DNA from: Gammaproteobacteria bacterium
GTDB taxonomy: Bacteria; Pseudomonadota; Gammaproteobacteria; Steroidobacterales; Rariloculaceae
Direction of reading: 5' to 3'
DNA length: 41,277 nt
NCBI GenBank assembly: GCA_047516145.1
Contig: JAKZVH010000359.1
Span: 1-41,277 of the forward strand
Each line of letters begins with the position of its first letter. Within the stretch, counting starts at the first letter, position 1. The position numbers and the translations under genes were made by a program. The notes beneath the pieces were generated by a model. It was not told the DNA's origin. It searched no databases and saw nothing but the letters and a program-made list of their open reading frames with translations. This document shows, piece after piece, positions 193 through 22,787 of this stretch.

Positions 193-1578
193 TTATCCGT
201 CGTCGACGATATCCTGAGCCGCTCGCTCACCCGACTCCATGGCGCCCTCCATGCCGCGGTTGGCCAGACTCAGGTGTTCGCCGCAGAACCGAATCAGACC
301 ATGCGCAGCGCCCATGGCGGCGGCGAAGCGGGTGATCTGTCGGGGGCGAAAATAGGCCCACGCCCCGCGGGCGCAAGGGTCGCTTCCCCAACTTTTTCGC
401 CCGATGAATTCCAGCTGACCGTGCGCGGCCGGGCGTGCTGCCTCGATCTCCTGGATCACCCGGGCGCCGGCTTCCCGAGGGGCCAGCGCGTCAAGTAGTG
501 CCGCGTTACGGCCCATTACCCAGGCCGAAAATCCGGTGACCTCCGACGGATCCTGGCCGTTGCGGACGGCGGCCATCATTCCCGCGGTACTGTCGGTGAA
601 CAGGCTGGGAGCGAATCCATCCGCTTCCCAGAACCGGGATTTATGGGCGAAGTAGAGTTGGGTCATGGGCTGCGCCGGCAGGTTCGCCACAGCCTCCCGC
701 TGTTCGCCACTCAAGGGTGGGTCGATGCCGATCCCTCGCAATACCCCGAAGGGCAGGGCGCATACTGCGTGAGCCGCCCGGTAGACGGTACCGTCGTCAC
801 AGCGCACCGTTACGCGACGCCTGTCATCCTCGATTCCCGTCACCACTCGGCGAAAGTGCACGGGCTGATCGAGTGCCGCGGCCATGGCCTCCGGGACTCG
901 CTGCACGCCGTTCTCCACGGTATATCCGGCAGCGCCCGCAATAGAGGCCGAACGGGACTTGGAAGAGGCCGCTTGCGCCTTCGAGAAAGCCGCCCGGAAA
1001 AGCATCAGTAGCGCCGATACTCCGCGCGCGTCTTCGCCGTAGCTGACGTTGATGCCGTAGCCGACCCGGATCGCCGCATCGCTGAGTCCGAGCCCCTTCA
1101 TCCATTCGTACATGGAGACATCGAGCCTGGCGTTGGCCGGGTCGAGCCAGTCCCGCGGACTCTCGAGGCGGTTTTCCCGAGCAGTCAACACTCGGCTGTA
1201 CCTCCAGGGCAGCAACGCCTTGTCCCTCGCCGGGAACGGATTCGCGGGATGATCGGCCCACTCCGACTGGCGGATGATGGCGCCGTCGAGTACCAGGTCC
1301 TGTTCGCGGAAGAATTCCAGCGCGCGCGTGATATCGACGAGACCGATACCGAACCGCGATGCCGCGGCGATGACCCGCCGGTAGCCTGCGCCGATGAAAG
1401 TCCCGCCGGCTTCCATTTGCCCGCCGAGTTGCCGCATGGATCGCACGCGCCCGCCGACGCGCTCCCGGGCTTCGATCACCTGGACGTCGACGCCGGCGTC
1501 CTGGAGGTGCAAGGCGGCGCTGAGGCCCGCGAGACCCGCGCCGATCACCACTGCTTCGCAGCGATGTACCGGCGTCAC
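193..1578 (-). CDS. FAD-dependent flavin amine oxidase-family oxidoreductase (monoamine-oxidase-like). It is the last gene of the heme chain and a candidate functional CgoX/HemY replacement.
   Basis: ORF 193..1938 was trimmed. The first ~120 residues are Arg/Gly/Pro junk overlapping hemH. The GTG at 1578-1576 overlaps the hemH TGA (GTGA). The dinucleotide-binding motif VVIGAGLAGLSAALHL..VIEARERVGGR and the C-terminal FCGEHLS..GMEGAMESGERAA are typical of the Pfam Amino_oxidase family. Confidence 0.8.
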   Translation of the reverse strand: MTPVHRCEAVVIGAGLAGLSAALHLQDAGVDVQVIEARERVGGRVRSMRQLGGQMEAGGTFIGAGYRRVIAAASRFGIGLVDITRALEFFREQDLVLDGAIIRQSEWADHPANPFPARDKALLPWRYSRVLTARENRLESPRDWLDPANARLDVSMYEWMKGLGLSDAAIRVGYGINVSYGEDARGVSALLMLFRAAFSKAQAASSKSRSASIAGAAGYTVENGVQRVPEAMAAALDQPVHFRRVVTGIEDDRRRVTVRCDDGTVYRAAHAVCALPFGVLRGIGIDPPLSGEQREAVANLPAQPMTQLYFAHKSRFWEADGFAPSLFTDSTAGMMAAVRNGQDPSEVTGFSAWVMGRNAALLDALAPREAGARVIQEIEAARPAAHGQLEFIGRKSWGSDPCARGAWAYFRPRQITRFAAAMGAAHGLIRFCGEHLSLANRGMEGAMESGERAAQDIVDDG

Positions 1579-2642
1579 GTCAACTCCGCACCGCAGAGCG
1601 CACCGGGTGGCTCGCCGGGTCGGCCGGAAAGGCAGCAATCGGCCGGGCAGACATCGTGGCTGGGCCCGCGCCCGCCCAAAGCCGGGCGGTCTGGGCCAGC
1701 CGTCATCCGCTCGACGATCAACTCCCGCACCATGCCCACGTAGGCGGGATGGGCGCCCACCGTACCCGCGCGCACCATGTCGAGGCCCAACTCGGCGGCC
1801 TTGTCCGCCGCTTCCACGTCCAGATCCAGGACGACCTCCATGTGATCGCAGACGAATCCGATGGGGGCGACCACGACATCCGTATGTCTCGCCCCGCGCG
1901 TGGCCTCCAGCGCTTCGCTGATGTCCGGCCCGAGCCACGGCTCACCGTAGGAAGCGTTTTGGCTCTGGTAGACCAAGATCCAGGCCCCGGCACCCGCCGC
2001 CTCGGCGGACAGCGCGCACGCTTCCCGCAGCTGGGCCCGGTAGTCGCAGCGTTCCGCCATGGACAGCGGCAGGCTGTGGGCTGTGAACAGCAAGGCCGGT
2101 GGCGCTCCACCGGCGGGCAGCCGCGCGAACGCCTCGCGCAGCCGGTCGCTCACGGCCGCGATGAAGCCGGGATGGTTGTAGCCGACCCGCAGCTTGTCGA
2201 TTTGCGGTGCGCCTTCAAGCCCCTGCACCGCGGTGTAGAGATCTTCGCGGTATTTCCGGCAACCGCTGTATGAACTGAACGTGCTGGTGACGTAGGCGAT
2301 GGCTCGGCGGATCCCGTCGGCGGCCATCCGTTCCAGCGTATCTCCGAGCAGGGGGTGCCAGTTGCGGTTACCCCAGTAGACTGGTATCCGCGGTCCGGCG
2401 GCAGCCAATTCGCCCTCAAGCGCCCCGACGAACTCCCGGGTGTGGGCGTTGATCGGGCTGACACCCCCAAAGCGATGGTAGCGCTGGGCGATGCGCGCCT
2501 TGACCGGCGGCGGCACACGCAGCCCCGCCAGCACGTTGTCGAGAAACGGCATGACGTCGTCCGTGCCCTCGGGGCCGCCGAAAGAGACTACCAGCACGGC
2601 GTCGTACTTCCGGGCTTCGTTGTCGTAGAGCTCAGCCGGCAT
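1575..2642 (-). CDS. hemH: Ferrochelatase. By context probably a coproporphyrin ferrochelatase (CpfC), with a Cys-rich C-terminal tail.
   Basis: N-terminal YDAVLVVSFGGPEG, plus FTAHSLP and PIGFVCDHMEV, are ferrochelatase hallmarks. The last 30 residues carry four Cys (VCPADCCLSGRPGEPPGALC) and there is an internal SGCRKYRE. This resembles [2Fe-2S]-type microbial ferrochelatases. Confidence 0.9.
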   Translation of the reverse strand: MPAELYDNEARKYDAVLVVSFGGPEGTDDVMPFLDNVLAGLRVPPPVKARIAQRYHRFGGVSPINAHTREFVGALEGELAAAGPRIPVYWGNRNWHPLLGDTLERMAADGIRRAIAYVTSTFSSYSGCRKYREDLYTAVQGLEGAPQIDKLRVGYNHPGFIAAVSDRLREAFARLPAGGAPPALLFTAHSLPLSMAERCDYRAQLREACALSAEAAGAGAWILVYQSQNASYGEPWLGPDISEALEATRGARHTDVVVAPIGFVCDHMEVVLDLDVEAADKAAELGLDMVRAGTVGAHPAYVGMVRELIVERMTAGPDRPALGGRGPSHDVCPADCCLSGRPGEPPGALCGAELT

Positions 2643-3366
2643 CGGCGATCCGGCTCTGCCACACTGTCCGTCCGACGAAGAACGGTCCCAGGCTGTCCAG
2701 AAACTGCGAAGTCTGCTCGGTCTTGCGCATCTCCTGCACCACCGCCGAGAGGGGGAACAGATTTGGACCCAGCAGCCCGATCACGAAGTCGTTGTCGTGC
2801 TTGTCCAGACCGTGGCAGGCCAGGCGGATATCCGCCGCGAGCCCGGCGGCGCCGTAGCGCCTGCCAATGGAGCCATGCTCGGCGAGAATCTGGCGCTGCT
2901 TGGCTTGCGGCAGCACGTAAAAGCTCTTGGAGCGCTGCAGCGGGTACCACACCGCCCAGGTATGGACCGGATTGAGAATCTTGGAGCGGGGCTTCTCGAA
3001 CAGCGTATCCTCCAGATCCGGCTCGTAACCGATGGTGTACGTGCGCCCGAGCATGTCGAATTCGCCCTTGTGGGTCATGTCCGCAAAGGGCGGACCGTTG
3101 AACGCATTCCGGAGTGCCTGGGCGAAGAACGCCGGATCCTCGGCCATCGCGATGACGCCAATGCCTGTGGGGTCATTGGCGTCAAGGTATAACGCCCCCT
3201 CGACTCCCGCTTCCTCGAGGGCCTGTCCCGCGGCAGCGACGTCGCCACAACCGTTGAACGCGGTGAATTTCATGAACAGCCGGCGGTTCAGCGAGATCGG
3301 CCGGCCTTCGCGCGTGCCTTTCTCGCTGAGATCCACCGACACCGGGTCTTGTCTTGATTGCGTCAC
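2632..3366 (-). CDS. hemQ: Chlorite dismutase-family protein, likely coproheme decarboxylase (HemQ/ChdC)
   Basis: 244 aa. WAVWYPLQRSKSFYVLP..RQILAEHGSIGRRY..PFFVGR aligns by eye with actinobacterial HemQ (YPFVRSYEWYLLP..MLADHGMAARGY..PFFTGR), including the proximal His. The gene sits between hemE and hemH. Its GTG start overlaps the hemE stop. Confidence 0.7.
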   Translation of the reverse strand: MTQSRQDPVSVDLSEKGTREGRPISLNRRLFMKFTAFNGCGDVAAAGQALEEAGVEGALYLDANDPTGIGVIAMAEDPAFFAQALRNAFNGPPFADMTHKGEFDMLGRTYTIGYEPDLEDTLFEKPRSKILNPVHTWAVWYPLQRSKSFYVLPQAKQRQILAEHGSIGRRYGAAGLAADIRLACHGLDKHDNDFVIGLLGPNLFPLSAVVQEMRKTEQTSQFLDSLGPFFVGRTVWQSRIADAG

Positions 3367-4385
3367 GTTGCTTGCTCCTCGTGCACGGCGTCGACCAGCG
3401 CGGTCACGCTTTCCAGCGGGGTACTCGGGAGAATGCCGTGGCCCAGATTCACGATATGGCCCTCGGGCTTCACCCGTTGTAACAGGTTCGCCGCCGCCGC
3501 CCGGGTCGGCACGGCGCCGCCCAACAGAATGGCGGGGTCGATATTGCCCTGCACCGCTCGGCCTGGATAGCGTGACTGCAGGGCCGCGATGTCCACTCGC
3601 CAGTCCACAGCCAGCACCTCGGCGGGCAGGCTCGCGTACGCCTCAAGCAGGTGCGGCGCGTTCTGCAGAAACATGATCCTCGGTACGCCGGCCTCACCGA
3701 CCGCATGGAGCAGTTTGGTCAGATGAGGCCGAATGAGCCGTTCCCAATCCGGTAGCGAGAGGACGCCCGCCCAGGAATCGAAGATCTGTACGGCGTCGGC
3801 GCCTGCCCGCGCCTGGCTGATCAGGTATGTTGCCATGGCATCGGCAAGTTTTCCGAGCAGGTTCTGAAGAACGTCCGGCTGTGCCGCCGCGAAGGCGCGC
3901 AACGTGGGGAAGTCCCTCACGCCGCGTCCCTCCACGAGGTAGGCGGCCAGGGTCCACGGTGCACCGCAGAATCCCAGCAACGCGGTTTCCTCGGGGAGCA
4001 CGGCGCGGGTCTGCCTGAGCGCGGCGACGACCTCGGGTCCGAGCCGGTCCGGGTCCGGCGGCGTCAGCGCGTCCACGCCCGCCTTGTCGCGAATCGGGTT
4101 CTCCACCACCGGGCCGGGGTCAAAGTCGAACTTCACGCCCAACGCCGGCAGCGGGCTCATGATGTCGGCGAATACGATGGCAGCGTCCAGAGGGAATCGC
4201 GCCAACGGCATCAGGGTCACTCTGGATGCAAGTTCGGCGGACTGTGCCACCGCCTTGAAGGGATAGGATCGGCGCAACTCGCGGTACTCGGGCAGGTAGC
4301 GCCCGGCCTGGCGCATGATCCAGAGCGGGCGCCGGTTGACGGCCTCGCCGCGAATCGCCTTCAGCAGCAGCCTTTCCCCGGTCAC
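3363..4385 (-). CDS. hemE: Uroporphyrinogen decarboxylase
   Basis: The URO-D signature PLWIMRQAGRYLPEYRELR lies near the N-terminus. Length is 340 aa. Confidence 0.95.
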   Translation of the reverse strand: MTGERLLLKAIRGEAVNRRPLWIMRQAGRYLPEYRELRRSYPFKAVAQSAELASRVTLMPLARFPLDAAIVFADIMSPLPALGVKFDFDPGPVVENPIRDKAGVDALTPPDPDRLGPEVVAALRQTRAVLPEETALLGFCGAPWTLAAYLVEGRGVRDFPTLRAFAAAQPDVLQNLLGKLADAMATYLISQARAGADAVQIFDSWAGVLSLPDWERLIRPHLTKLLHAVGEAGVPRIMFLQNAPHLLEAYASLPAEVLAVDWRVDIAALQSRYPGRAVQGNIDPAILLGGAVPTRAAAANLLQRVKPEGHIVNLGHGILPSTPLESVTALVDAVHEEQAT

Positions 4386-5101
4386 TGTACCCGCTCCGCT
4401 TCGCTGGTAAACCGGTAGCCGACGCCGCGCACGGTATGAAAGTGCTCGGGGGCCTCCGGGTTGCGCTCGAATCGCTTGCGCAGGCGCACGATGAAATTGT
4501 CAATCGTTCGAGTAGAGGGATACACCTCGTAACCCCACACTTTATCGAGGATGTCCTCTCGCGGGACGATGGCGCCATCGTGTTCCGCGAGCACCTTCAT
4601 GATCATGGCTTCCTTGTGGGTCAGCGAGTGCTCGATACCGTCCCATCCCAGGGCGTGATACGTCAGAAAATCGATCTCGTTACCGCTGAAATGCAGCGTG
4701 GACCTGGCCCGTGCATACCAGTGACTGCGGCGCAGGATGGCCGCGACCCGCAGCAACAACTCCTTGAGATGGAACGGTTTGGCCAGGTAGTCGTCGCCGC
4801 CGGCTTCAAGACCGCGAATGCGATCCTCGGGGCCTCCCTTCACCGTGAGGAACATCACCGGCGTGTGCATTGCGTTGCGGCGCAGTTCCTCGCACGTCTT
4901 CAGCCCATCCATTCTTGGCATCATCACGTCCAGAAGAATCAGGTCGAAGCGGCTTGCCAGCGCCTTGCGAAGGCCTTCGGCGCCGTCGTTGGCCACTTCC
5001 GCGGCGTAGCCTTCGGCTTCCAATATCTCGCGGATGCCGTCCGCCAGGTGAACCTCATCGTCGACCACCAGTATCCGGGCCGGATGGATCGCTGCGCTCA
5101 C
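4382..5101 (-). CDS. OmpR/PhoB-family response regulator
   Basis: Receiver domain: ILVVDDE..DLILLDVMMPRMDG..KP. C-terminal winged helix: TRTIDNFIVRLRKRF..TVRGVGYRF. The GTG start overlaps the kinase stop, and its own stop overlaps the hemE GTG start. Confidence 0.92.
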   Translation of the reverse strand: MSAAIHPARILVVDDEVHLADGIREILEAEGYAAEVANDGAEGLRKALASRFDLILLDVMMPRMDGLKTCEELRRNAMHTPVMFLTVKGGPEDRIRGLEAGGDDYLAKPFHLKELLLRVAAILRRSHWYARARSTLHFSGNEIDFLTYHALGWDGIEHSLTHKEAMIMKVLAEHDGAIVPREDILDKVWGYEVYPSTRTIDNFIVRLRKRFERNPEAPEHFHTVRGVGYRFTSEAERVQ

Positions 5102-6186
5102 CGCTGCGCTCCGGGGACCGGCCAGTCCACGGTGACCGTCGCGCCCGTGCCCGGCCCGTCGCTGGCAGCGCTGACCCGGGCTCCCGAGAGCTCCGCAAGA
5201 CCGCGAACGAGGTACAACCCCAGCCCGGTACCCTGTGTGGAACGGCGCATCTCGTCCCCGAGCCGATAGAATTTTTCGAAGATCATGGAGGCGTCCTCGG
5301 GCGCAAAGCCACTGCCGTCATCGCGCACCGTGATACGAACGAACCGGCCGGCCGGTTCAGCGCCTATCCACACGCTTTGACCCTGCCCGGAGACACAGGC
5401 CTTGACGGCGTTGTCGAGCAGGTTGCGCAGAACCGTTTCGATCGCGAAGGGGTCTGCATCCACCCGCAAATCGCCGCTAACGCTGACTTTGATGTCCACG
5501 CCGTGCCCGTGGGCCGCCTCCTGGTGATGGGCCAGGCTAGCCTCGATAACGCCGGCCAATTCGAGCGTACCCCGCTTCAATTCGATGCGGCCTTCCTCGA
5601 GCCGCGTGGTCTCCAGCAGGTTTTCCACCATCCGCAACAACCGCTCGCCATCCTCCAGCATCCGCTGGCCCAGGCGTTGCGTGTGCGGATCGTCGGTTCG
5701 TCTGATCAGGGATTCGGCCGCGAGCCTGATGCTGGCCAACGGGCTCTTCAATTCGTGCGAGACGGCGGCGAGAAAGTTCTGTTGCCGCTTTCTGAGCTGC
5801 GCATCGTGCCGGATCGTGCGCGTCAGCACGGTCATGCCGCCCAGCAGCACCAGCAGGAAGAATCCGCCTTCCCAGGTATAGCGATTGATGCGCGAATCGG
5901 CGTCGTCGGCGAGGGCCTGCAGGGACTCCGGCCGAACGGCCGCCGTGCCCCGATCCGCGTCGATCTCGATGTGGGGCAATAGCTCCGGCAGTTGGAGCGC
6001 CGCCTGCGCGAACGCCGCGGTGACTGCCAGCGCGTCGGCTTCATAGAGCGCCGCGATGCGATCCCGATTGTCCCGCGCCAGGCTGCGCTGATCGGCGACC
6101 CACCAGGCAGTCTGGGCCGTGGATATCGCCAGCAGGGCGAGAAAACCGAACTGCAGCGCCATGGTTGGATTGCGTTTCAGCGTCAT
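5098..6186 (-). CDS. Sensor histidine kinase with two TM helices and a ~95-aa extracytoplasmic loop; no HAMP or PAS domain recognised
   Basis: H-box FLAAVSHELKSPLASI, N-box LRNLLDNAVKA, and G-boxes DDGSGF and GTGLGLYLV are present. ORF 5098..6447 was trimmed to the ATG at 6186 (MTLKRNPTMALQFGFLALLAIS). The upstream part overlaps hemL, and this ATG forms an ATGA overlap with the hemL stop. Confidence 0.9.
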   Translation of the reverse strand: MTLKRNPTMALQFGFLALLAISTAQTAWWVADQRSLARDNRDRIAALYEADALAVTAAFAQAALQLPELLPHIEIDADRGTAAVRPESLQALADDADSRINRYTWEGGFFLLVLLGGMTVLTRTIRHDAQLRKRQQNFLAAVSHELKSPLASIRLAAESLIRRTDDPHTQRLGQRMLEDGERLLRMVENLLETTRLEEGRIELKRGTLELAGVIEASLAHHQEAAHGHGVDIKVSVSGDLRVDADPFAIETVLRNLLDNAVKACVSGQGQSVWIGAEPAGRFVRITVRDDGSGFAPEDASMIFEKFYRLGDEMRRSTQGTGLGLYLVRGLAELSGARVSAASDGPGTGATVTVDWPVPGAQR

Positions 6187-7538
6187 GACTCGCTCTCCAT
6201 CGATTCCTCGGTTGCCGGGTGGTCGGGTTGGTTTGCCCCGGCCACGGTTTCGAGCACTTCCCGCAGTGTCGTGGCGAAGCGGTCGATGTGCCCGGTATCG
6301 TGGGCCAGCGACAGGAATCCCACCTCGAACGCTGACGGCGCCAGCGCGATGCCGCGTTCCATAAGGCCGTGAAAAACCTGCCGGTAGATTTGTGCGCCCC
6401 GCGGGTGGACCGCCGCGGCGGACCGCGGCGCTTCGGTCGATCCCCACGCGATCCAGAAGATCGAGCCGATGCGCACCAGCGCGGCCGGGACCGAGGCGGC
6501 GCGCAGCACTTCGTCGAGGCGCTGCTCCAGGTATTTTCCGAGACGCTCCAGGGTCTGCCAGCCGTGGCGGCGCTGCAGATACTTGAGCGTCGTCAGCCCC
6601 GCCGTCATGGCCACCGGATTGCCGGACAAGGTGCCGGCCTGGTACACGCCTCCGGTGGGCGCCAGGTGCTGCATCGTCTCTCGCGGGCCGCCGAACGCGC
6701 CCACGGGCATGCCGCCCCCGATGACCTTGCCGAAGGTGACCAGGTCAGGCTGCACGTCGTAGTGGGCCGCCGCGCCCCCGGGTCCCAGCCGGAAACCCGA
6801 AATGACCTCGTCGAAGATCAAGAGTGCCCCGTGGCGCGTGCATCGCTCGCGCAGCAATTTCAGAAACTCCGGGCGTTGCAGGAGCAGGCCGTTATTCGCG
6901 GGTACGGGTTCGATGATGACCGCGGCGATGCGGTCGCCGTCGCGATCGAAGAGTGCTGCCACGGCGTCGTCGTCGTCGAGCGGCAGGACGCGGGTCAGCG
7001 CCGCATGCGGCTCCGGGATACCCAGCGACGACGGGGTGCCGAAGGTTGCCAGCCCGGAGCCCGCCGCCACCAGCAGGTCATCCACGTGGCCGTGATAGCA
7101 GCCGGAGAACTTGACGATGAGTTCGCGTTCTGTGGCGCCCCGGGCCAGGCGCACGGCACTCATCACGGCCTCGGTTCCGGAGGATACGAAGCGCACCTGC
7201 TCGATGCCGGGGTAGCAGGCCACCACGGTCTCGGCCAGCTCGATTTCCACTGCGGACGGCGCGCCGAAGGAGGTACCGCGGCCAACGGCGCCCTTAACGG
7301 CAGCCACGACCGATGGGTGGGCATGGCCCAGGATCAGCGGGCCCCACGACCCGACGAAGTCCAGGTAGCGATTGCCGTCCTCGTCGACGACTTCGGCGCC
7401 ACGGCCCTCGCGGATGACCTTCGGGGTTCCGCCCACGCCGCGAAACGCCCGCACGGGCGAACTCACGCCGCCGGGCAGGACCTCGAGCGCCCGGTCGAAC
7501 CATGCAATCGATCGCGGGTTCCCGCGGGCGGGGCTCAT
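6183..7538 (-). CDS. hemL: Glutamate-1-semialdehyde 2,1-aminomutase
   Basis: Class-III aminotransferase fold with SWGPLILGHAHP, FDEVISGFR and TFGKVIGGGMPVGAFGG (PLP-lysine region). Confidence 0.95.
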   Translation of the reverse strand: MSPARGNPRSIAWFDRALEVLPGGVSSPVRAFRGVGGTPKVIREGRGAEVVDEDGNRYLDFVGSWGPLILGHAHPSVVAAVKGAVGRGTSFGAPSAVEIELAETVVACYPGIEQVRFVSSGTEAVMSAVRLARGATERELIVKFSGCYHGHVDDLLVAAGSGLATFGTPSSLGIPEPHAALTRVLPLDDDDAVAALFDRDGDRIAAVIIEPVPANNGLLLQRPEFLKLLRERCTRHGALLIFDEVISGFRLGPGGAAAHYDVQPDLVTFGKVIGGGMPVGAFGGPRETMQHLAPTGGVYQAGTLSGNPVAMTAGLTTLKYLQRRHGWQTLERLGKYLEQRLDEVLRAASVPAALVRIGSIFWIAWGSTEAPRSAAAVHPRGAQIYRQVFHGLMERGIALAPSAFEVGFLSLAHDTGHIDRFATTLREVLETVAGANQPDHPATEESMESES

Positions 7539-8539
7539 AGCCAGCCCCCCTCGATTGCATCCCGCGCGTGATAGGTAATGATCTGATCGGCGCCGGCGCG
7601 GCGGATTGCCAACAGGTTCTCGCGAACCACCTGGGCTTCATCCAACCAGCCGTTGGCCGCCGCTGCCTTGACCGCGGCGTATTCGCCGGAGACATTGTAG
7701 GCGGCCAGCGGAAGCCGGCTGGCGCCGCGCACGGCCCGAATGACGTCGAGATAGGCGAGGGCGGGTTTCACCATGAGCATGTCCGCGCCCTCGCGCTCAT
7801 CAAGCTCCGCTTCGCGCAGCGCCTCGCGGACGTTGCGCGGGTCCATCTGGTAGCTGCGCCGATCCCCGAATGCCGGTGCGGAGTCCGCCGCGTCGCGAAA
7901 CGGCCCGTAGTAGGCGGAGGCGTACTTGACGGCGTAGGCGAGGAGCAGGACATTGTCGTGGCCGGCCGCATCGAGGGCGTCGCGGATGGCGGCGACGCGT
8001 CCGTCCATCATGTCCGAGGGTGCGACGACATCGGCGCCAGCCTCGGCGTGGCTCAATGCGGTCCGCACCAGCGGTACGAGGGAAGCGTCATTGACTACGT
8101 GGCTGTTGTCGACGATGCCACAGTGGCCATGATCGGTGTAGGCGCAGAGGCATACGTCGGTCATTACCACGAGATCGTCGCCGAATTCGGCCTTCAGCCG
8201 GCCGACCGCGCGTTGCACACTGCCGTCCGCGGCCCACGCCGCCTGACCGTCGGCCGTCTTGTGCCCGGCTTCGTCGGAATGGCCGAAGAGGAGAACCGAT
8301 CGAATTCCCAGATCCAGGTCGCCCGCCACGCGGCTGACCAGGTTGTCGAGACCGAGTTCGGCGATGCCCGGCAGCGACGGGATGGGTCGCTCGGCCCTTC
8401 GTGTTCCAAGCACGAAGTGGGGCACGATGAACTGTGACGGTGAGATCCACGTCTCCGCCGCCAGATCCCGGATGACCTGGTTCCGGCGCAGACGTCGCGG
8501 ACGTATGCGCTTGGGAGTGGTCACTCTCGTGTCGTTCAT
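7535..8539 (-). CDS. hemB: Porphobilinogen synthase (ALA dehydratase), Zn-type
   Basis: Cys-rich metal site DVCLCAYTDHGHCG, PSDMMDGRV, and the active-site Lys region MVKPALAYLD. Confidence 0.95.
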   Translation of the reverse strand: MNDTRVTTPKRIRPRRLRRNQVIRDLAAETWISPSQFIVPHFVLGTRRAERPIPSLPGIAELGLDNLVSRVAGDLDLGIRSVLLFGHSDEAGHKTADGQAAWAADGSVQRAVGRLKAEFGDDLVVMTDVCLCAYTDHGHCGIVDNSHVVNDASLVPLVRTALSHAEAGADVVAPSDMMDGRVAAIRDALDAAGHDNVLLLAYAVKYASAYYGPFRDAADSAPAFGDRRSYQMDPRNVREALREAELDEREGADMLMVKPALAYLDVIRAVRGASRLPLAAYNVSGEYAAVKAAAANGWLDEAQVVRENLLAIRRAGADQIITYHARDAIEGGWL

Positions 8540-9324
8540 TGCATGATCTCCAACAGCCCTTCCAGGCTGGGTTGCGGCGCCTCCGCGGTTACGGTCAAGC
8601 CGGCGGCCCGCGCCGCGCGGCTGGTGGAAGGGCCGATGCTAAGTATTTCCGCCGCCGTGTCGAATTCAATCCTGTTCATCAGGCCCGTCACGGCCGACGG
8701 GCTTGCCAGGAGGATTTTATCCGCACGGAGTTCCGAGAGCGCCTGTTTTCGGGTCGGCGGCGCCGTTGGCACCGTGCGGTAAACGTTGATGCGCAGGCAC
8801 ACGCCCCCGGCGCGCCCCAATGTTTCCTCCAGGATCGGCCCGGCATTCTCAGCGACCGCGATCAATATCCGGGGGGGCTTTTGCCGTGACCCCGATTCCG
8901 CGTCGAGGCGCGCCGCCAGCGCCTGGGCCAGGGATGCCGCGGTGCCATCGGGGGCCACCAGGTCCACCCGGCCGGGCAGCCCGCGGGCTGCGTCGGCTGT
9001 CGCGGGTCCGACCGCGGCGATCAGAAGATCCGGACGTCTTTCAGCGGCAGCGCGATCCGATTCCGACGCGGAAATCCACGCTCGGAGCGCGTCGGCACCG
9101 CGCCGGGACGTCAACACAAGCCAATCGGTCGCCGGCAGCGCTGCCGCCATTCGAGACCGGGCTGCCGGATCGCGAATGGGCTGGCATTCAATGCACGGCA
9201 TCATCAGCGGTACGGCGCCTGCATTCGCCAGCCGCGACGCCCAGGGCGCGCAGTCCTCGGCGGCTCGGGTGACCAGGACCCGTTGTCCAATGAGCCCGCT
9301 CACGGCGGCTTCAGCCCGATCCAT
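8536..9324 (-). CDS. hemD: Uroporphyrinogen-III synthase
   Basis: HEM4-like size (~255-262 aa), GQRVLVTR start of the fold, and the position between hemC and hemB. The longest ORF starts at 9324 (25-nt overlap with hemC). A GTG at 9303-9301 would give the same GTGA overlap seen at the other junctions and may be the real start. Confidence 0.8.
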   Translation of the reverse strand: MDRAEAAVSGLIGQRVLVTRAAEDCAPWASRLANAGAVPLMMPCIECQPIRDPAARSRMAAALPATDWLVLTSRRGADALRAWISASESDRAAAERRPDLLIAAVGPATADAARGLPGRVDLVAPDGTAASLAQALAARLDAESGSRQKPPRILIAVAENAGPILEETLGRAGGVCLRINVYRTVPTAPPTRKQALSELRADKILLASPSAVTGLMNRIEFDTAAEILSIGPSTSRAARAAGLTVTAEAPQPSLEGLLEIMQ

Positions 9325-10220
9325 GCGGACTCCACCAGCGCGTCGAGGTCGGTTTCGCGCGCCGTTGCCTCAACAACCCTGCCCTCATGCTCAAGCCAGG
9401 CGATGAGCCGATAGGTTCCGGCCGATGGTCGGTCCGCCGTGCACCAGGCGCCGAATGCCGTGTCGCAGCCGCCCTCCACCCGGGCCAGCAATGCGCGCTC
9501 GGCTTGAACCGCCTGGCGGGTGGCGTTGTCGTCAAGGGCTTCAAGCGCCGCCCGAATTCGGGTATCCGATCGTCGGCACTGGATCGCCAGCGCGCCCTGT
9601 GACGGCGCCGGCACAAAGTTCTCCGGAGACAAACGCCGGAGCACGAATTCATCGGTCACGGGATCGGCGACGCCGTCCAGCGGACTTTGTCGCAATCTCT
9701 CGATCCCCGCGGCGGCGAGCACCACACCGTCCAGATCGCCGCGCAAGCGGTTGATGCGCGTGGGCACATTACCGCGGATGGGTACCACCGCGACGTCCGG
9801 CCGCAGGTGCCTGATCCAGGCCTGGCGCCGCGCGGAGGCCGTGCCCACTTTGGCTCCGTCGACGATGGGCAGCCCGTGACTCGGTTCGGCTGCCGCCGCC
9901 TTGTTCGTCACGAGTACGTCTGCTGGATCAATCCGCGCGGGCACCGCCGCGATCGTCAGTTCCGGCGGTGAACCCGTGGGAAGATCCTTGTAGGAGTGCA
10001 CGGCGATGTCCACGTGTGCGTCGATCAGCGCTTGCTCGATCTCCCGCACGAAGACGCCGTGCGGTCCGATCGCGCTGAAGGATGTCGCGGGGGATCGGTC
10101 CCCGGCGGTCGTGATGATAGTGATCGACGTTTCGTGCCCGAGCCTGGCGAGTTCCCCGGCGATACCAGCGGTTTGCGTGCGCGCCAGATGCGATCCGCGC
10201 GTTCCCAGCCGGAGCTTCAT
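9300..10220 (-). CDS. hemC: Hydroxymethylbilane synthase (porphobilinogen deaminase)
   Basis: N-terminal KLRLGTRGSHLARTQT, with SYKDLP and IRGNVPTRI motifs. Confidence 0.95.
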   Translation of the reverse strand: MKLRLGTRGSHLARTQTAGIAGELARLGHETSITIITTAGDRSPATSFSAIGPHGVFVREIEQALIDAHVDIAVHSYKDLPTGSPPELTIAAVPARIDPADVLVTNKAAAAEPSHGLPIVDGAKVGTASARRQAWIRHLRPDVAVVPIRGNVPTRINRLRGDLDGVVLAAAGIERLRQSPLDGVADPVTDEFVLRRLSPENFVPAPSQGALAIQCRRSDTRIRAALEALDDNATRQAVQAERALLARVEGGCDTAFGAWCTADRPSAGTYRLIAWLEHEGRVVEATARETDLDALVESAWIGLKPP

Positions 10221-11629
10221 CGGTTTGCCCCCTGGACGCCGTCCGCGCCCTTCGCTGCGCCGGAGAGATCGTTGCGCCCCGTCCCGCGAACGGCATCGCG
10301 TCCGTGTGGGGCGCGGTCGAGCGCCCGGCGCAGTTCCTCGGCGAACTCCGCGTCGAGCCCCTGGAGAAAGGCGTCCAGCGATCCGTCGGGCCCGTGGTGC
10401 AGAAGGCCTCTCAGCCCCAGTGTCGGGATATGCGCGAAGCGCCGCGCCAGGACCTCGGCCCAGGTTTCGATGGCTTCCCGCTCGGCCTCTCCGAGTCCCT
10501 TCAAATCTTTCTTGAGCAATCGCCGCACACCTTCCCGGGCGGTATGCCGGTAGCGGTTCTGCAGAGCGCCGAACAGCGGGCCGTAGACTCGCTCTGCGAA
10601 CCGGTCCCGAAGCCGGGGCAATGCTTCGTCCACGAGTTCGCGCGCCTGGGCGGTTTCAAGTAGTCGCGCCGCGCGGTTGCCCTGGGCTACGCGGACGATC
10701 TCGTCCATGCCCATGCGATGCAGGCCGAGCTTCTCGCAGGCGCGGCTGTCGATATTCTCGGGGACGGCCATGTCGATCAGGACGGGTGCCTCACCGGAAG
10801 GCGTCTTCGCGGCAATCCGTTCGAGTACCGATTCCGTCAGCAGCGGTTCGGGCGCGCCGGCCGAGCTGAGCACGGCTTCCACGGCCGGGGGATCGCGCAG
10901 AAAGTCGGCCAGCGCCACAGCCTCGGCGGAGTATGCGTCCGCGGCAGCCCGGGCCTTGGCTACCGTTCGATTCACGAAGATCAGCGGCGTACCGGATTTC
11001 GCCAACGACCGCGCCGCCCTCTCCGTCATGGCCGAGACACCCACCAGGGCGACGGCGCCGGGGGTGCGCTTGAGCCGCTCGCGCAGCCGCGCCACGGCGA
11101 CCTCCGCCAAAGACACGCGCCCGTGCCCCAGGCGCGTCGCACCGCGCACCCGCGCCGCGATGATCAGGGTTTCGTCGAAGAGCAGTTCCAATCGCGGTCC
11201 GCTGAGCCCCAGGGCGATCGCGCGATCGCGGCAGTCGCGGACCTGACCGACGATTTCCACCTCGCCGACCGCGGCGGAATCCAGTCCGGCGGCGACCAGA
11301 AACAAGTGCTCGCAGGCCCCCTCGCCCTGCCACGCCTTGAGCGCGCGCTGGGCTTCGCCGGGGCCCGGTGCCTGGCCGGTGAGCAGTTCGTATGCCTGGG
11401 GCCGAAGGTCGGTGTGGCGACGGTCACCCGGAACCGCGTCCGGGGCCCGCGCGAAGATGAGTTCGACGCGGTTGCAGGTATCCAGGTAGGCGAGTTCCGA
11501 CAGACCGGCTTGGTGGGCGAAGTCCTGCAGGCGTCGGTCGCGCGCCGCCTTCGGCAAGGCGAAGCGAGCCAGGGCTTCGCTGCCGTCCTGGCGCCACGAA
11601 ATGCCGACGATGCCGAGTTCTTCCAACAC
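10217..11629 (-). CDS. hemA: Glutamyl-tRNA reductase
   Basis: Catalytic-Cys motif LDTCNRVELIF, a central Rossmann segment VALVGVSAMTERAA, and a C-terminal dimerisation helix region. The start is a GTG with no purine-rich SD upstream. Confidence 0.93.
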   Translation of the reverse strand: MLEELGIVGISWRQDGSEALARFALPKAARDRRLQDFAHQAGLSELAYLDTCNRVELIFARAPDAVPGDRRHTDLRPQAYELLTGQAPGPGEAQRALKAWQGEGACEHLFLVAAGLDSAAVGEVEIVGQVRDCRDRAIALGLSGPRLELLFDETLIIAARVRGATRLGHGRVSLAEVAVARLRERLKRTPGAVALVGVSAMTERAARSLAKSGTPLIFVNRTVAKARAAADAYSAEAVALADFLRDPPAVEAVLSSAGAPEPLLTESVLERIAAKTPSGEAPVLIDMAVPENIDSRACEKLGLHRMGMDEIVRVAQGNRAARLLETAQARELVDEALPRLRDRFAERVYGPLFGALQNRYRHTAREGVRRLLKKDLKGLGEAEREAIETWAEVLARRFAHIPTLGLRGLLHHGPDGSLDAFLQGLDAEFAEELRRALDRAPHGRDAVRGTGRNDLSGAAKGADGVQGANR

Positions 11630-15206: not shown

Positions 15207-16232
15207 CTACACCGCGTCTTCCAACGCTCCCCACTGGGCGCGGATGCTCTCGGCCAGGCAGAGCTGGCCCGCGGCGCGAACGTGATTGTGCTCCGAGGCG
15301 CTACCAAAGCGGGTCGGATCCCAGCCGAAGTAGCTCTCTCGCAGGGCATCGCCCGCAAATCGCGAGGCGAGTTCCAGCGTGATGCTAAGTGCCGCCGCCG
15401 GCAGCGCCCGCCACTCGTCCCCGGACAACAGATCCCGGGCCTCGCGCGCGTACCCGCCAACCGCGGCGCGAAACAGCGGCACGGAAAAACTCGTCTCGCG
15501 CGTATCTTCCCCCCGAGGGTTGCACCACGAGCGCAAGGCATCGCCCAGTTCAAGGATTACCGGCATGGCTCCCACCGTATCCAGGTCGACCAGGCAGACG
15601 GCATCGTCGGTCACGGCATCGAAGATGAAATTGGAGATCTTCGGGTCGCCGTGAACGATCCGCTCGCCGGTCAGCGGCAGTTCCGGCAGCTCGGCGGCCA
15701 ATTCCAGGATCCGTTCGCCAACGGGCTCGACCTCGTCGAACCGGGGATGATGACGATGCGATGCCAACACGCGTCTCAGTTCCGCCAGATGCGCCGCGGT
15801 GTCGTGCACGCCCAGGCGCGGATTGGAGAAGGTGTGATCCAGATCGCTCACCGCCCGGTGGAATCGTGCCAGCAACGCGCCGGCTTCGCGGGCCTGACGG
15901 GTGTTTTCGAGAGCATCTCTGGAGATGCCAGGCACGAACGTCAGAACTCGCCAAACCTCGCCGTCGTGCACCAGCGCCGCTTCGCCCGTGGGCGTCGGCA
16001 TGAGCCGCGGCGTGGGCAGACCCTTTTCACCAAGATGCTTCGTGATCGCATCGATGTCGTCGTTGATGGTCACCGGGAACATGGGGTTGACACGCTGCAG
16101 AACGAAGCTCTTCCCGGCCGGCGTATCGACCCGCCAACTGGCGTTGATCAGTCCGGACTCAAGCGCGGTCAGTGTTCCGCCGGCGAGTCCGAACATTTCC
16201 AGCACCGCGGTGGACTTGGCCGAACGATTCAT
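15207..16232 (-). CDS. APH/choline-kinase-fold phosphotransferase (homoserine-kinase type II-like)
   Basis: Catalytic loop IVHGDPKISNFIF and metal-binding CLVDLDTVG. ORF 15207..16379 was trimmed to the ATG at 16232 (MNRSAKSTAVLEMFGL). It lies 64 nt downstream of cobQ on the same strand. Confidence 0.75.
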   Translation of the reverse strand: MNRSAKSTAVLEMFGLAGGTLTALESGLINASWRVDTPAGKSFVLQRVNPMFPVTINDDIDAITKHLGEKGLPTPRLMPTPTGEAALVHDGEVWRVLTFVPGISRDALENTRQAREAGALLARFHRAVSDLDHTFSNPRLGVHDTAAHLAELRRVLASHRHHPRFDEVEPVGERILELAAELPELPLTGERIVHGDPKISNFIFDAVTDDAVCLVDLDTVGAMPVILELGDALRSWCNPRGEDTRETSFSVPLFRAAVGGYAREARDLLSGDEWRALPAAALSITLELASRFAGDALRESYFGWDPTRFGSASEHNHVRAAGQLCLAESIRAQWGALEDAV

Positions 16233-16296
16233 GTGTTCCTGAGTAGCGTTCCACGATTGGCCGAGAACCGGGGCATTGTATCGCGGTGCCGCCTGC

Positions 16297-17868
16297 TCAT
16301 GACGCGGCCTTCCGCAGCACCATTGGCCGCGCCGCACAAGCAAGGAGCGCATCGACATCGACTGCTTTCTCAACGCCATCGGCCAGTTTGTCGAGGGCCG
16401 TTTCGACGGCAGCGGTATAGTTCAGACCCGAACTGCCACCGGCTCCGGCCCGCCGCAGCCAGGTCCGGCGAAACTCGTCGTTGGCGAAGACGCCGTGCAA
16501 GTAGCTGCCTTCGATCAGCCCATCGGCGGAGCTTGCCCCGTCCGCCGCGCCTTCCAGATCGAATAATGGCCGGACACGGTCTTCGCCAGTGGTCCCGCCC
16601 ACGTGTATTTCGTAACCGGCCACCGGCAGCCCGGTGCGCACGCAGAGTCCTCGAACTGGACGCACGGTCTTGGACCCGGCCATCTCCGTGTGCACGTCAA
16701 GCAGGCCAAGTCCCTGCGCCTGGCCCGCCCGGCCATCGGCGCCACTCGCGTCGTTGATGCTGCGTCCGAGCAATTGGAAACCGCCGCAGAGCCCCAGCAC
16801 CCGTCCGCCCGCCCTTGCGTGGGAGAGAATATCGTGGTCCCAGCCCTGAGCCCGCAGAAACGCCAGATCGCCCAGCGTGGACTTGGTGCCGAACAGGATC
16901 ACGACATCGGCGTCGCGCGGCAGGGGGCGCCCGGGAGGCACCCAGCGAAAGTCGACCCCGGGTTCCAGCCGCAACGGATCGGCATCGTCGAAGTTGGCCA
17001 TCCGGGACAGCATGGGCGCCACGATCTTTAGCCGGAACCGTTCATCGGGTTTCTTCGTTCGGGCGTCGAGGCGACCGCCGTCGAGCACCACGGCATCCTC
17101 GGCGGGCAGGGCCGCGGCGCAGGCCAGCCAGGGAACGACGCCGAAGCAGGGCCAGCCGGTGCGCGACTCGATGGCGGTGACGCCCGCGTCAAACAATTTC
17201 GGGTCGCCGCGAAACTTGTTGACGACGAATCCCCGGATCAGTGCCGCGTCTTCCGCCGCCAGAACGACTTTCGTGCCGACCAGGCTGGCGATGACGCCGC
17301 CCTTGTCGATATCCCCCACCAGGCAGACGGGGACGCCGGCCTGCCGAGCGAATCCCATATTGGCGATGTCGCCCGCTCGCAGGTTGATTTCCGCCGGGCT
17401 GCCGGCTCCTTCCACGATGATGAGTTCATAGGCGTCGACGAGGCGCCCAAAGCTCTGTAGAACAGCGCCCATGCGCGCATCGCGCCGAGCCATGTAGTCC
17501 GTGGCGCTCATGCTGTCGACAACCTTGCCCCGCACGACCACCTGCGCCCGACGGTCGGACTCCGGTTTGAGCAATACCGGGTTGAAGTCCACTTCCGGTG
17601 CGAGCCCGGCCGCCTGGGCCTGCAGTGCCTGGGCGCGCCCGATCTCGCCGCCCGCGCAGGCAGCCGCATTGTTGGACATGTTCTGCGGCTTGAATGGCGC
17701 AACCGCCACGCCCCGACGGCGGGCGATGCGGCACAGCGCGGCGGCGATGAGCGACTTGCCGACATCGGAGCCGGTGCCTTGCACCATGAGCGCCCTTGCC
17801 GCATGTCTCACCCGCGATCGTCGCAAGGGCGCCGGCGGCCAAGTGCTGTCTGCCGGTGCCATACTCAT
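16297..17868 (-). CDS. cobQ: Cobyric acid synthase
   Basis: N-terminal MVQGTGSDVGKS, with a glutamine amidotransferase domain (GLCGGFQLLG nucleophile Cys, GYEIHVG). The ATG at 17868 forms an ATGA overlap with the btuD stop. An internal ATG at 17787 (MVQGTGS) is an alternative start. Confidence 0.92.
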   Translation of the reverse strand: MSMAPADSTWPPAPLRRSRVRHAARALMVQGTGSDVGKSLIAAALCRIARRRGVAVAPFKPQNMSNNAAACAGGEIGRAQALQAQAAGLAPEVDFNPVLLKPESDRRAQVVVRGKVVDSMSATDYMARRDARMGAVLQSFGRLVDAYELIIVEGAGSPAEINLRAGDIANMGFARQAGVPVCLVGDIDKGGVIASLVGTKVVLAAEDAALIRGFVVNKFRGDPKLFDAGVTAIESRTGWPCFGVVPWLACAAALPAEDAVVLDGGRLDARTKKPDERFRLKIVAPMLSRMANFDDADPLRLEPGVDFRWVPPGRPLPRDADVVILFGTKSTLGDLAFLRAQGWDHDILSHARAGGRVLGLCGGFQLLGRSINDASGADGRAGQAQGLGLLDVHTEMAGSKTVRPVRGLCVRTGLPVAGYEIHVGGTTGEDRVRPLFDLEGAADGASSADGLIEGSYLHGVFANDEFRRTWLRRAGAGGSSGLNYTAAVETALDKLADGVEKAVDVDALLACAARPMVLRKAAS

Positions 17869-18671
17869 ATCGGACCTTCGATTTCGACATGATCGCCATC
17901 GACGCGGCCGCGCACTCCGTATATCTCCGCAAGTCGAGCCGCACTCAGTGTCGTGGCGGGCGATCCGTCGGCGACGATTCGCCCACCCTTCATCCAGATG
18001 AATCGGTTTGCGTAACGCCTGGCGAGCACGACGTCATGGAGCACCACCAGGGCGCCGCCGCCCTGACCGACGAAGGTCTTGATCAGGTCCATGACCCGAA
18101 ACTGGTGGTATGGATCCAGCTCCGCCACCGGCTCATCGGCTATCAGCAGCGGCGCTTCGGCAGCGAACGCGCGGGCGCAGTGCACGCGCGCCAACTCGCC
18201 TCCCGACAGTGTTGCGGTCGAACGTTTGGCCAGTGAATCGAGGTCGCACGAAGCCAACGCACGATCAACGGCCTGGCGGTCGCTGCCGCGCAGTCGCCCG
18301 AGCGCCGCACCGTGGGCGAAGCGGCCAAGCGCCACCACGTCGCGAACCGGATTCGGCCAGGCGAGGGGCCGATTCTGAGGCAGGTAGGCCAGCTGCCGCG
18401 CCCGCCGGCGCGGCGTCATCTCGGCCGTGTCTTGCCCATCGATGCGCGCCCGGCCGGACGTGCGCGGCACCAGTCCAATGGCGCCCCTGAGCAGGCTTGT
18501 CTTGCCGGCTCCGTTGGGCCCCAGCAAGGCGACCAACTCGCCAGCCTGCAGGCCGAACGAGGCGGCTTCGACCAGGACAGCTTCGCCTGCCTTGACGGTC
18601 AGGCCGGTCACCTGAAGCCCGCCGGCGTGACCGCACTGATTCATTCCCCCGTGCCCCTCAGTCATGAACAC
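17865..18671 (-). CDS. btuD: ABC transporter ATP-binding protein, cobalamin/iron-chelate type
   Basis: Walker A GPNGAGKTS, signature LSGGELARV, Walker B LLIADEP. The start is uncertain within 18644-18671. Confidence 0.85.
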   Translation of the reverse strand: MFMTEGHGGMNQCGHAGGLQVTGLTVKAGEAVLVEAASFGLQAGELVALLGPNGAGKTSLLRGAIGLVPRTSGRARIDGQDTAEMTPRRRARQLAYLPQNRPLAWPNPVRDVVALGRFAHGAALGRLRGSDRQAVDRALASCDLDSLAKRSTATLSGGELARVHCARAFAAEAPLLIADEPVAELDPYHQFRVMDLIKTFVGQGGGALVVLHDVVLARRYANRFIWMKGGRIVADGSPATTLSAARLAEIYGVRGRVDGDHVEIEGPI

Positions 18672-19662
18672 TGCGCCTTTGCATGGCGATCCAGATGAAA
18701 GCAGGCGCTCCGATCAATGCCGCCACGACGCCAAGTTTGAGTTCGCTGACCGTGGGCATCAGCCGTACACCGATGTCAGCCAGCACCAGAATCAGGCCCG
18801 CCAACAAGGCGGATGGCAACAGGGACCGCGCCGGATCATGATTCACCATGGGGCGAACGATGTGCGGCGCCACGATGCCGACAAAGCCGATGATTCCCGC
18901 CAGGGCAACCGCGGCGCCGGTGGCCAGTCCCGTGCCCAACACGACCATCAGCCGTTGTCGCCACAGGCTCAGGCCAACTCCGCTGGCCGCTTCTTCGCCC
19001 AGTGTCAACGCCGAGAGTCCGCGCCGCGCGGCGAACAAGACAGTGAGACCGGCGATCAGGAAGGGCGCGGCGAACGCCAGGTCCGGGAAACTTCGATTGG
19101 CCACAGAGCCGAGCATCCAGTTGACCATATCCGCCAGCGTGAACGGGTTGGGTGCCAGGTTCATCATCAGGGTCATTGCCGCCCCGGCGAAACTCGACAG
19201 GCCCACACCGATGAGAATGAGCGTCACCGCCGAAGCCGTCCGCAGCGCCGCAAGGGCGATCAACCCGGTCCCCGCGAGCGCACCGACGATTGCCGCCGTC
19301 GGCATCGCCCAGGCGCTCAGCGCGGCGTAGCCGTAGTACAGCGCTCCGGTAGCGCCCAGGGAAGCCATCGCGGAGACGCCGAGAACGCCCGGCTCGGCGA
19401 GCGGGTTCCTGAGCAGCCCCTGCAGCGCGGCGCCGCTCGTGCCGAGCGCGGCGCCCACTGCAAACGCGGCCAGCGCCCTGGGCAGCCGGATATTCACGAC
19501 GACCAGTTGATCGCCGGGGTCGCCACGACCGATCAGCGCCGCCAGCACCCGATCGATCTCCATCGGCGTCGACCCGAGCAGACAAGCGGCGAACAGCGCC
19601 GCCACACAGGCCAGCGCCAAGCCGGCCGATCCTTGCAGTCCCGTTACGCGATCGGCGGTCAT
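18658..19662 (-). CDS. btuC: FecCD-family ABC permease, cobalamin/iron-chelate type
   Basis: Polytopic FecCD-type sequence (RLPRALAAFAVGAALGTSGAALQGLLRNPLAEPGVLGVS..). ORF 18658..19911 was trimmed to the ATG at 19662, which forms an ATGA overlap with the btuF stop. Confidence 0.88.
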   Translation of the reverse strand: MTADRVTGLQGSAGLALACVAALFAACLLGSTPMEIDRVLAALIGRGDPGDQLVVVNIRLPRALAAFAVGAALGTSGAALQGLLRNPLAEPGVLGVSAMASLGATGALYYGYAALSAWAMPTAAIVGALAGTGLIALAALRTASAVTLILIGVGLSSFAGAAMTLMMNLAPNPFTLADMVNWMLGSVANRSFPDLAFAAPFLIAGLTVLFAARRGLSALTLGEEAASGVGLSLWRQRLMVVLGTGLATGAAVALAGIIGFVGIVAPHIVRPMVNHDPARSLLPSALLAGLILVLADIGVRLMPTVSELKLGVVAALIGAPAFIWIAMQRRSVHD

Positions 19663-22412: not shown

Positions 22413-22589
22413 TGATCCCCTCCCGCACCCCTTGGGGTGCACTGTAATGACAACTCCGATCCCGCCAACCGCGACGGGCGCGGCGCTTCGTTTCATGTCG
22501 TTACAAGGAAGAAGGGGCACTTGGCCCGCAAATGCGGGCGCGGCGCTCTTTCCCGTTCGCGGACAATGTGCCCGGCCCACGAACGAACG

Positions 22590-22740: not shown

Positions 22741-22787
22741 CCTCACATCGGTGAGATGCGCGAACCCGGACAGCACCATCTACGGCT

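Follow-up and report, generated by a model that had tools for sequence, protein, structure and literature searches.

The oxidation of coproporphyrinogen is assigned to only two enzymes, CgoX and CgoN, in a 2026 review, according to which the enzyme set is apparently complete for the known heme makers (PMC13564367). CgoN (YtpQ), the oxygen-independent enzyme of Priestia megaterium, is likewise a flavoprotein and serves the same pathway step as CgoX (PMC10965808; PMC13564367). It is described as structurally unique and as occurring mainly in Bacillaceae, and the flavin-dependent porphyrinogen oxidases are considered in the same paper to have arisen independently three times (PMC10965808). HemG, HemJ, and HemY, which act on protoporphyrinogen IX, set a precedent in that the enzyme for porphyrinogen oxidation has repeatedly been replaced by a non-orthologous one. 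According to a 2023 phylogeny of CgoX and PgoX, Proteobacteria are mainly protoporphyrin-dependent, with Deltaproteobacteria as the exception (PMC10740692), and an older survey reported free-living bacteria, e.g. Thermus thermophilus, Thermomicrobium roseum, and Opitutus terrae, that have all heme enzymes save a recognisable oxidase (PMC4231631). Here we describe a gene for a flavoprotein of the monoamine oxidase (MAO) type, which follows hemH at the end of a heme operon of a Gammaproteobacteria bacterium (Rariloculaceae) and probably encodes a coproporphyrinogen III oxidase that is not orthologous to CgoX. The stretch of DNA analysed, termed the window, comprises 41,277 nucleotides (nt; positions 1-41,277, forward strand) of contig JAKZVH010000359.1 of assembly GCA_047516145.1. 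Full-text literature searches returned nothing on an MAO-like CgoX, this operon, a gammaproteobacterial coproporphyrin pathway, or heme synthesis in Rariloculaceae.

The flavoprotein resembles CgoX/HemY (TIGR00562; e.g. the Bacillus subtilis enzyme) in that it has a flavin adenine dinucleotide (FAD)-binding Rossmann fold with the motifs GxGxxG and E..R.GG(R/K), is soluble and signal-less, and occupies the slot after hemH. The reaction is presumably the same. Unlike CgoX/HemY, to which it is only about 20% identical, it has structures of MAO and putrescine oxidase as its nearest neighbours. Its N-terminal FAD-binding Rossmann motif reads VVIGAGLAGL...IEARERVGGR. Pfam Amino_oxidase (PF01593) matches residues 16-457 with 203 bits (E-value 1.3e-59), and NAD_binding_8 matches with 42 bits. 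More than 2000 homologues are present in the sequence database, and the database name of the protein is 'flavin monoamine oxidase family protein' or 'monoamine oxidase'. The full-length Amino_oxidase match and the number of homologues indicate that the gene is real. Against the HemY model TIGR00562, the flavoprotein scores 34.5 bits (cutoff 97.85), and only residues 7-59 are matched. The model NF008845 gives 35.9 bits against a cutoff of 560 and is likewise confined to the N-terminal ~55 residues, which contain the Rossmann motif. The C-terminal HemY motif G-(V/I)-G-(I/L)-(P/A)-(D/Q)-C is not found in the flavoprotein, which ends in ...NRGMEGAMESGERAA. The Pfam and NCBIfam matches of the flavoprotein include no CgoN (YtpQ) family.

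The best PDB sequence matches of the flavoprotein are a bacterial MAO (8P84, 109 bits), human MAO-B and MAO-A, L-amino-acid oxidase (LAAO), and putrescine oxidase. With 38 orthologues as input, AlphaFold2 gave a confident model with a predicted local distance difference test (pLDDT) score of 88.7. The top 50 Foldseek matches of this model are all MAO, putrescine oxidase, LAAO, cyclohexylamine oxidase, or hydroxynicotine oxidase, with template modelling (TM) scores of 0.72-0.77. Protoporphyrinogen oxidase is not among the 60 PDB sequence matches or the 50 fold matches listed. When the flavoprotein and HemY are aligned profile to profile with hhalign, the probability is 98.4% over 277 columns at 20% identity. 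As judged from this alignment, the flavoprotein is a distant relative of HemY within one FAD superfamily. It belongs to the MAO/LAAO branch and not to canonical HemY/CgoX. The initial annotation of this locus, which had placed the protein nearer to MAO and LAAO than to HemY, is borne out by the HemY models below cutoff, by the sequence and fold matches, and by scores of only 21-37 bits against the canonical HemY proteins described below.

The likeness to flavin amine oxidases, such as human MAO-A/B, Rhodococcus putrescine oxidase (2YG3), the Thermoanaerobacterales MAO (8P84), and snake-venom LAAO, extends over the full length of PF01593, with PDB sequence scores of 83-109 bits and TM scores of about 0.75. 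The PFP entrance-loop motif of the amine oxidases is kept, and in the aromatic cage Trp407 is located at the position of MAO-B Tyr398. Unlike these enzymes, the flavoprotein is encoded in a heme operon and differs from them at several positions of the active site. Lys296 of MAO-B contacts flavin N5 through a water molecule, and we take it to be the residue that defines an amine oxidase. The corresponding residue of the flavoprotein is Gln307, which is invariant among the 38 orthologues. The counterpart of MAO-B Tyr435 is deleted (NRG-MEGA versus SGYMEGA), and the position of the Cys that binds FAD covalently is occupied by Ala. By these alignments, the flavoprotein departs from working amine oxidases at the N5-proximal Lys, the aromatic cage, and the covalent-FAD Cys.

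The flavoprotein gene is the last of 11 genes on the minus strand, which constitute one operon with adjoining ends that overlap by 4-25 nt. The gene order is hemA-hemC-hemD-hemB-hemL-histidine kinase-response regulator-hemE-ChdC-like gene-CpfC-type hemH-flavoprotein gene (Table 1), and among the hem genes hemC, hemB, hemL, and hemE have clear matches. The open reading frame (ORF) of the flavoprotein comprises 461 codons from GTG to TAA (195-193). Its start codon and the TGA stop codon of hemH overlap as GTGA at 1578-1575, and the start is preceded, at a distance of 5 nt, by the Shine-Dalgarno sequence GGAG. The orthologues likewise begin with MT..HR.E.VVIGAG, which confirms the GTG start codon and indicates that the in-frame extension of the ORF to 1938 is not coding. 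The overlap with the hemH stop had been pointed out in the initial annotation, and the two protein motifs quoted there are both present, as VVIGAGLAGLSAALHLQDAGVDVQVIEARERVGGR and FCGEHLSLANRGMEGAMESGERAA. It had also been stated that the operon encodes every step of the coproporphyrin-dependent route except coproporphyrinogen oxidation and that the flavoprotein gene is the only gene left over. The Pfam and NCBIfam matches uphold the first part of this account; the second part does not hold, because the two-component pair had been overlooked. No further terminal heme gene is found among the other large ORFs of the window or within 10 kb past its end. A 505-residue radical-SAM protein encoded downstream was considered as HemN and rejected; it is of the B12-binding type, with a weak HpnJ/BchE-like match.

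The position of the flavoprotein gene is conserved. Relatives of the flavoprotein were found at 79 loci by a scan of a genome collection and at 80 further loci by a scan of metagenomes. The gene immediately upstream is hemH in all 83 orthologous loci that have upstream sequence (48-79% identity). These comprise 12 of 12 genome loci (56-79% identity), where the order is hemE, cld-like, hemH, and flavoprotein gene, and 71 of 71 metagenome loci (48-69% identity). The hemH-flavoprotein junction is overlapping or has a gap of at most 20 nt in 11 of 11 genome loci. The genome loci come from Candidatus Rariloculaceae, Candidatus Azotimanducaceae, and unclassified Gammaproteobacteria, and represent at least two gammaproteobacterial orders. 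The operon is also present on complete chromosomes (OZ242031.1, OZ244860.1, OZ241971.1, OZ241346.1, and OZ241908.1). The hem-linked loci range from AT-rich Tara Oceans contigs up to a GC content of 66%, and two of these AT-rich contigs, the proteins of which are only 48% identical to the flavoprotein, retain the clade-specific residues described below. A small convergent gene lies directly downstream of the flavoprotein gene in the window. No conserved partner gene is found downstream across the orthologous loci, where the other gene clusters are artefacts of overlapping frames. A cysH-like gene, assigned by motifs only to phosphoadenylylsulfate (PAPS)/adenylylsulfate (APS) reductase, follows in about 31 of 60 loci, e.g. 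L093, with the same orientation as the flavoprotein gene.

A canonical HemY occupies the slot of the flavoprotein in outgroup operons. The family of the chlorite dismutase (Cld)-like protein encoded in the operon has 606 representatives at 50% clustering, and seven members with 41-50% identity to the window protein, from Chloroflexota and other lineages, were examined. Six of the seven are encoded in a hem operon with an Amino_oxidase gene; the seventh (L165) stands alone without hem neighbours. In three of these loci (L161, L166, and L169), the order is chdC-hemE-hemH-hemY, and HemY directly follows hemH as the flavoprotein does in the window. In the other three (L163, L167, and L168), hemY is located elsewhere in the hem cluster. 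TIGR00562 gives 189.5 and 300 bits for the two outgroup oxidases that were scored (L161 and L163). The six outgroup HemY proteins match one another with 57-380 bits, and the window flavoprotein with only 21-37 bits. The end motif G(V/I)G(I/L)(P/A)(D/Q)C is present in the five full-length outgroup HemY proteins and in the C-terminal fragment from L167. When five canonical HemY proteins and one AhbD were used as queries against 898 kb of ingroup sequence (94 loci), only the Rossmann N-terminus of the flavoprotein was matched, with at most 41.6 bits. The presence of HemY in this slot in the outgroups and of an MAO-like protein in the ingroup is the pattern expected of a non-orthologous displacement within a conserved operon. 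In the Chloroflexota operon L163, a gene for an AhbD-type heme b synthase (495-1643; TIGR04545 457 bits, just under the cutoff of 500) lies beside the ChdC-like gene, so that this operon has oxygen-independent and oxygen-dependent options for the last heme step.

The closest relatives of the flavoprotein that are not linked to hem genes are about 88 paralogues with 36-48% identity, which have no hem neighbours and frequently occur as tandem pairs. They share with the flavoprotein the C-terminus FCGEH...NRGMEGAMESGE, including 'NRGMEGAMES', and are found in the same bacterial groups. Unlike the hem-linked proteins, they carry a twin-arginine translocation (Tat) signal and differ at the clade-specific positions. 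With a strict pattern, a Tat-like signal is detected in 76 of 90 paralogues, as compared with 3 of 80 hem-linked genes, and these three are artefacts of upstream read-through. The window flavoprotein has only 12 residues ahead of GxGxxG and has no twin-arginine signal. This difference indicates that the hem-linked proteins are cytoplasmic, in a family whose other members are periplasmic. They form a single clade by neighbour joining (20/30 bootstraps), and the residues Arg91, Arg103, Arg129, Gly175, Phe410, and Leu436 are conserved in this clade and differ in the paralogues. CgoX reportedly has large pockets with a positive charge (PMC10144233), and the three clade-specific arginines would be compatible with a substrate that has four propionates. 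The paralogues found in loci L012-L079 (e.g. L054 8001-10782 and L025 7863-9353) form a large MAO-like family with the C-terminus FCGEH..NRGMEGAMESGE in metagenome-assembled genomes of Gamma- and Alphaproteobacteria. Their neighbours, namely genes for a porin, DUF1015, DUF1838, methylmalonyl-CoA mutase, and dehydrogenases, are uninformative and unrelated to heme.

The two genes upstream of the flavoprotein gene bear on the identity of the pathway. The best PDB match of hemH is 28wn_A, 'Coproporphyrin III ferrochelatase', with 229 bits, and this match includes the Cys-rich tail. hemH scores about 120 bits against the coproporphyrin ferrochelatases (CpfC) of Firmicutes, as compared with 82 bits against the human protoporphyrin ferrochelatase (PpfC). 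The residue at its proximal position is Phe21 (VVSFGGP), and Phe at this position is the state of actinobacterial CpfC (PMC10427985). By these comparisons, hemH is of the CpfC type and nearer to coproporphyrin than to protoporphyrin ferrochelatases. The C-terminus of hemH (window 1575-1700, minus strand) contains a four-Cys motif, C-x3-CC-x12-C (DVCPADCCLSGRPGEPPGALCG), which is kept in the orthologues except that the last Cys is replaced by Gly in L010. This tail is similar to the [2Fe-2S] tails found in certain ferrochelatases of actinobacteria.

The product of 2632-3366, named 'chlorite dismutase family protein' in the database, matches Pfam PF06778 with 59 bits against a cutoff of 25. Its PDB sequence matches are Thermus TT1485 and the coproheme decarboxylases (ChdC) of Corynebacterium, Listeria, and Geobacillus. 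Its proximal residue, His164 (ILAEHG), is invariant; the distal Arg is absent, and an Asp is aligned there. Nearly all of the top fold matches are ChdC/HemQ, with true chlorite dismutases ranked lower; the model itself is weak (pLDDT 64) and poorest in the heme-binding half. The protein is therefore a probable divergent coproheme decarboxylase (ChdC/HemQ), as judged from these matches. In the ChdC-like family, the Tyr of WYPL and the proximal His are conserved while the position of the catalytic Tyr varies. The Cld-like domain is joined to a ferrochelatase in two proteins (P0298, 681 residues; P0360, 452 residues) and to an aldo/keto reductase in two others (P0246, 628 residues; P0270, 591 residues). 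The joins with ferrochelatase may be genuine fusions or may stem from overlapping genes that were called as one.

Taken with a probability of roughly 0.7, the flavoprotein would be an in-situ non-orthologous replacement of CgoX, which completes a gammaproteobacterial coproporphyrin-dependent heme pathway. Unlike HemG, HemJ, and HemY as enzymes of protoporphyrinogen IX, it would act on coproporphyrinogen III, to which ChdC and the CpfC-type HemH of the operon point. In the proposed pathway, HemE would yield coproporphyrinogen III, from which the flavoprotein would strip six electrons to form coproporphyrin III, probably with O2 and with release of H2O2. The CpfC-type HemH would then insert iron, and the ChdC-like protein would decarboxylate coproheme to heme b. 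HemY and MAO are members of a single FAD superfamily, so that the fold already performs the abstraction of hydride from a carbon adjacent to nitrogen. We infer the substrate of the flavoprotein and the direction of the replacement and, by analogy, O2 as the electron acceptor. In a bolder variant, the electrons might be passed to an acceptor other than O2, as in some relatives of the flavoprotein fold.

Somewhat less firmly, we favour the wider proposal that, besides CgoX/HemY and CgoN, the flavoprotein is a third coproporphyrinogen III oxidase of independent origin, recruited from the Tat-exported periplasmic MAO-like family with loss of the signal peptide, and that the pathway operates in a large and widespread clade of uncultured Gammaproteobacteria under a two-component system embedded in the operon. 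hemY would have disappeared from an ancestral operon of the chdC-hemE-hemH-hemY type, and a copy of a Tat-exported periplasmic flavoprotein would have shed its signal peptide and been installed right after hemH with translational coupling. This takeover would have occurred in the lineage of Candidatus Rariloculales, Candidatus Azotimanducaceae, and relatives.

Several observations weigh against the flavoprotein being a replacement of CgoX. The NCBIfam HemQ models give only about 45 bits for the ChdC-like protein. The counterpart of the catalytic Tyr of ChdC (Tyr145 of Staphylococcus aureus; Tyr147 of Listeria monocytogenes) is Tyr in the window and most loci, but Gln, Glu, or Ala in many members of the ChdC-like family; in these members, either the radical forms on another residue or some of them have another function. 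The monophyly of the hem-linked proteins is only moderately supported by the neighbour-joining bootstraps, and their stem branch is short. Finally, the searches for HemY covered the 898 kb of the loci only, so that CgoX, CgoN, or HemF/HemN together with HemG/HemJ may lie elsewhere in these genomes.

The last point leaves room for an accessory role, in which the flavoprotein supplies H2O2 to ChdC or oxidizes another small molecule connected with heme homeostasis, and a canonical CgoX or CgoN encoded elsewhere carries out the six-electron oxidation. ChdC uses H2O2, which is normally produced by CgoX (PMC10144233). The amine-oxidase scaffold is also largely kept, with the PFP entrance loop and Trp407, but the N5-proximal Lys and one residue of the aromatic cage are missing. 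An accessory flavoprotein would have to occupy the exact slot of canonical HemY in the outgroup operons, with no HemY within any of the 94 ingroup loci, and a redundant second oxidase that is translationally coupled in 83 of 83 loci is less parsimonious. We regard an accessory role as unlikely.

It is less likely still, and in our estimate improbable, that the flavoprotein is an unrelated amine or amino-acid oxidase which hitch-hikes at the end of the operon. This explanation agrees with the best sequence and fold matches, which are MAO, putrescine oxidase, and LAAO, and with the database names. However, 83 loci with identities as low as 48% and widely differing GC content keep the adjacency to hemH, the start of the flavoprotein gene overlaps the hemH stop, and the closest relatives without hem linkage are a separate Tat-exported group. 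Genes for amine catabolism are not found near the flavoprotein gene, among the ORFs of the window and in the downstream stretch. The initial annotation had weighed an independently recruited porphyrinogen oxidase against such a hitch-hiker. The conserved junctions, the separate clade without Tat signals, and the presence of HemY in the same slot of the outgroups argue for recruitment. That the flavoprotein is a fast-evolving orthologue of HemY/CgoX, which diverged vertically and was not recruited, fits the common superfamily (277 columns at a probability of 98.4%) and the same operon slot, but is very improbable, given that the protein is 36-48% identical to the Tat-exported paralogues and about 20% to HemY, shares the NRGMEGAMES C-terminus with the former and not GVGIPDC with the latter, matches TIGR00562 at residues 7-59 only, and has MAO and putrescine oxidase rather than protoporphyrinogen oxidase as its PDB neighbours.

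If the flavoprotein is a replacement of CgoX, it would be a further non-orthologous solution to porphyrinogen oxidation and a clean natural case in which an amine-oxidase scaffold has taken on a tetrapyrrole substrate; the novelty would probably be that of a new family performing a known pathway step. A complete coproporphyrin-dependent pathway would then be present in Gammaproteobacteria of marine, sediment, and soil metagenomes. The annotations 'flavin monoamine oxidase family protein' and 'chlorite dismutase family protein' would have to be corrected, because under these current names of the two key genes automated reconstruction would score the organisms as lacking the terminal heme steps.

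Table 1. Features of the heme operon and their positions in the window
Feature	Position	Strand	Basis
MAO-like FAD flavoprotein, 461 residues, proposed coproporphyrinogen III oxidase	193..1578	-	Pfam Amino_oxidase, full length
Translational-coupling junction	1575..1587	-	GGAG 1587-1584, GTG 1578-1576, hemH TGA 1577-1575
hemH, CpfC-like ferrochelatase, 355 residues, Cys-rich C-terminal tail	1575..2642	-	PDB sequence matches
Chlorite-dismutase-family protein, 244 residues, probable divergent ChdC/HemQ	2632..3366	-	Pfam PF06778, 59 bits
hemE, uroporphyrinogen decarboxylase	3363..4385	-	TIGR01464, 365.8 bits (cutoff 303)
OmpR-type response regulator	4382..5101	-	NCBIfam and Pfam matches
Sensor histidine kinase, 362 residues	5098..6186	-	HisKA and HATPase_c domains
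hemL, glutamate-1-semialdehyde aminomutase	6183..7538	-	NF000818, 570.8 bits
hemB, porphobilinogen synthase	7535..8539	-	NF006762, 461 bits
hemD, uroporphyrinogen-III synthase	8536..9324	-	Weak NCBIfam match, 65.7 bits; Pfam HEM4
hemC, hydroxymethylbilane synthase	9300..10220	-	TIGR00212, 246.8 bits
hemA, glutamyl-tRNA reductase, first gene of the operon	10217..11629	-	TIGR01035, 174.6 bits, just under cutoff; Pfam GlutR_N and Shikimate_DH

The histidine kinase and the response regulator (window 4382-6186, minus strand) overlap their neighbours by 4 nt. A response regulator is located between hemL and hemE in 41 of 41 orthologous loci, and the gap between hemL and hemE is 1.7-1.9 kb in nearly all of them. 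The two-component pair is absent from the outgroup hem operons with canonical HemY. The N-terminal ~130 residues of the kinase have no Pfam domain match.

The heme operon is adjoined by what looks like an operon for B12 uptake and salvage. A cobalamin riboswitch (Rfam RF00174, 117.6 bits; window 22580-22759, minus strand) is located upstream of a gene for a TonB-dependent receptor (20565-22673), which is followed by genes for a periplasmic binding protein, a FecCD permease, an ABC ATPase, and a CobQ-like amidotransferase (16297-20519). A gene for a di-heme cytochrome c peroxidase (CCP_MauG, 121 bits; window 23529-24806, plus strand) lies near this cluster. Beyond position 1 of the window, within 10 kb downstream of the heme operon, locus L080 contains an IS605 OrfB/TnpB-type gene with a Cas12f-like TNB domain and a DDE transposase gene (15980-17374 and 20627-21386).

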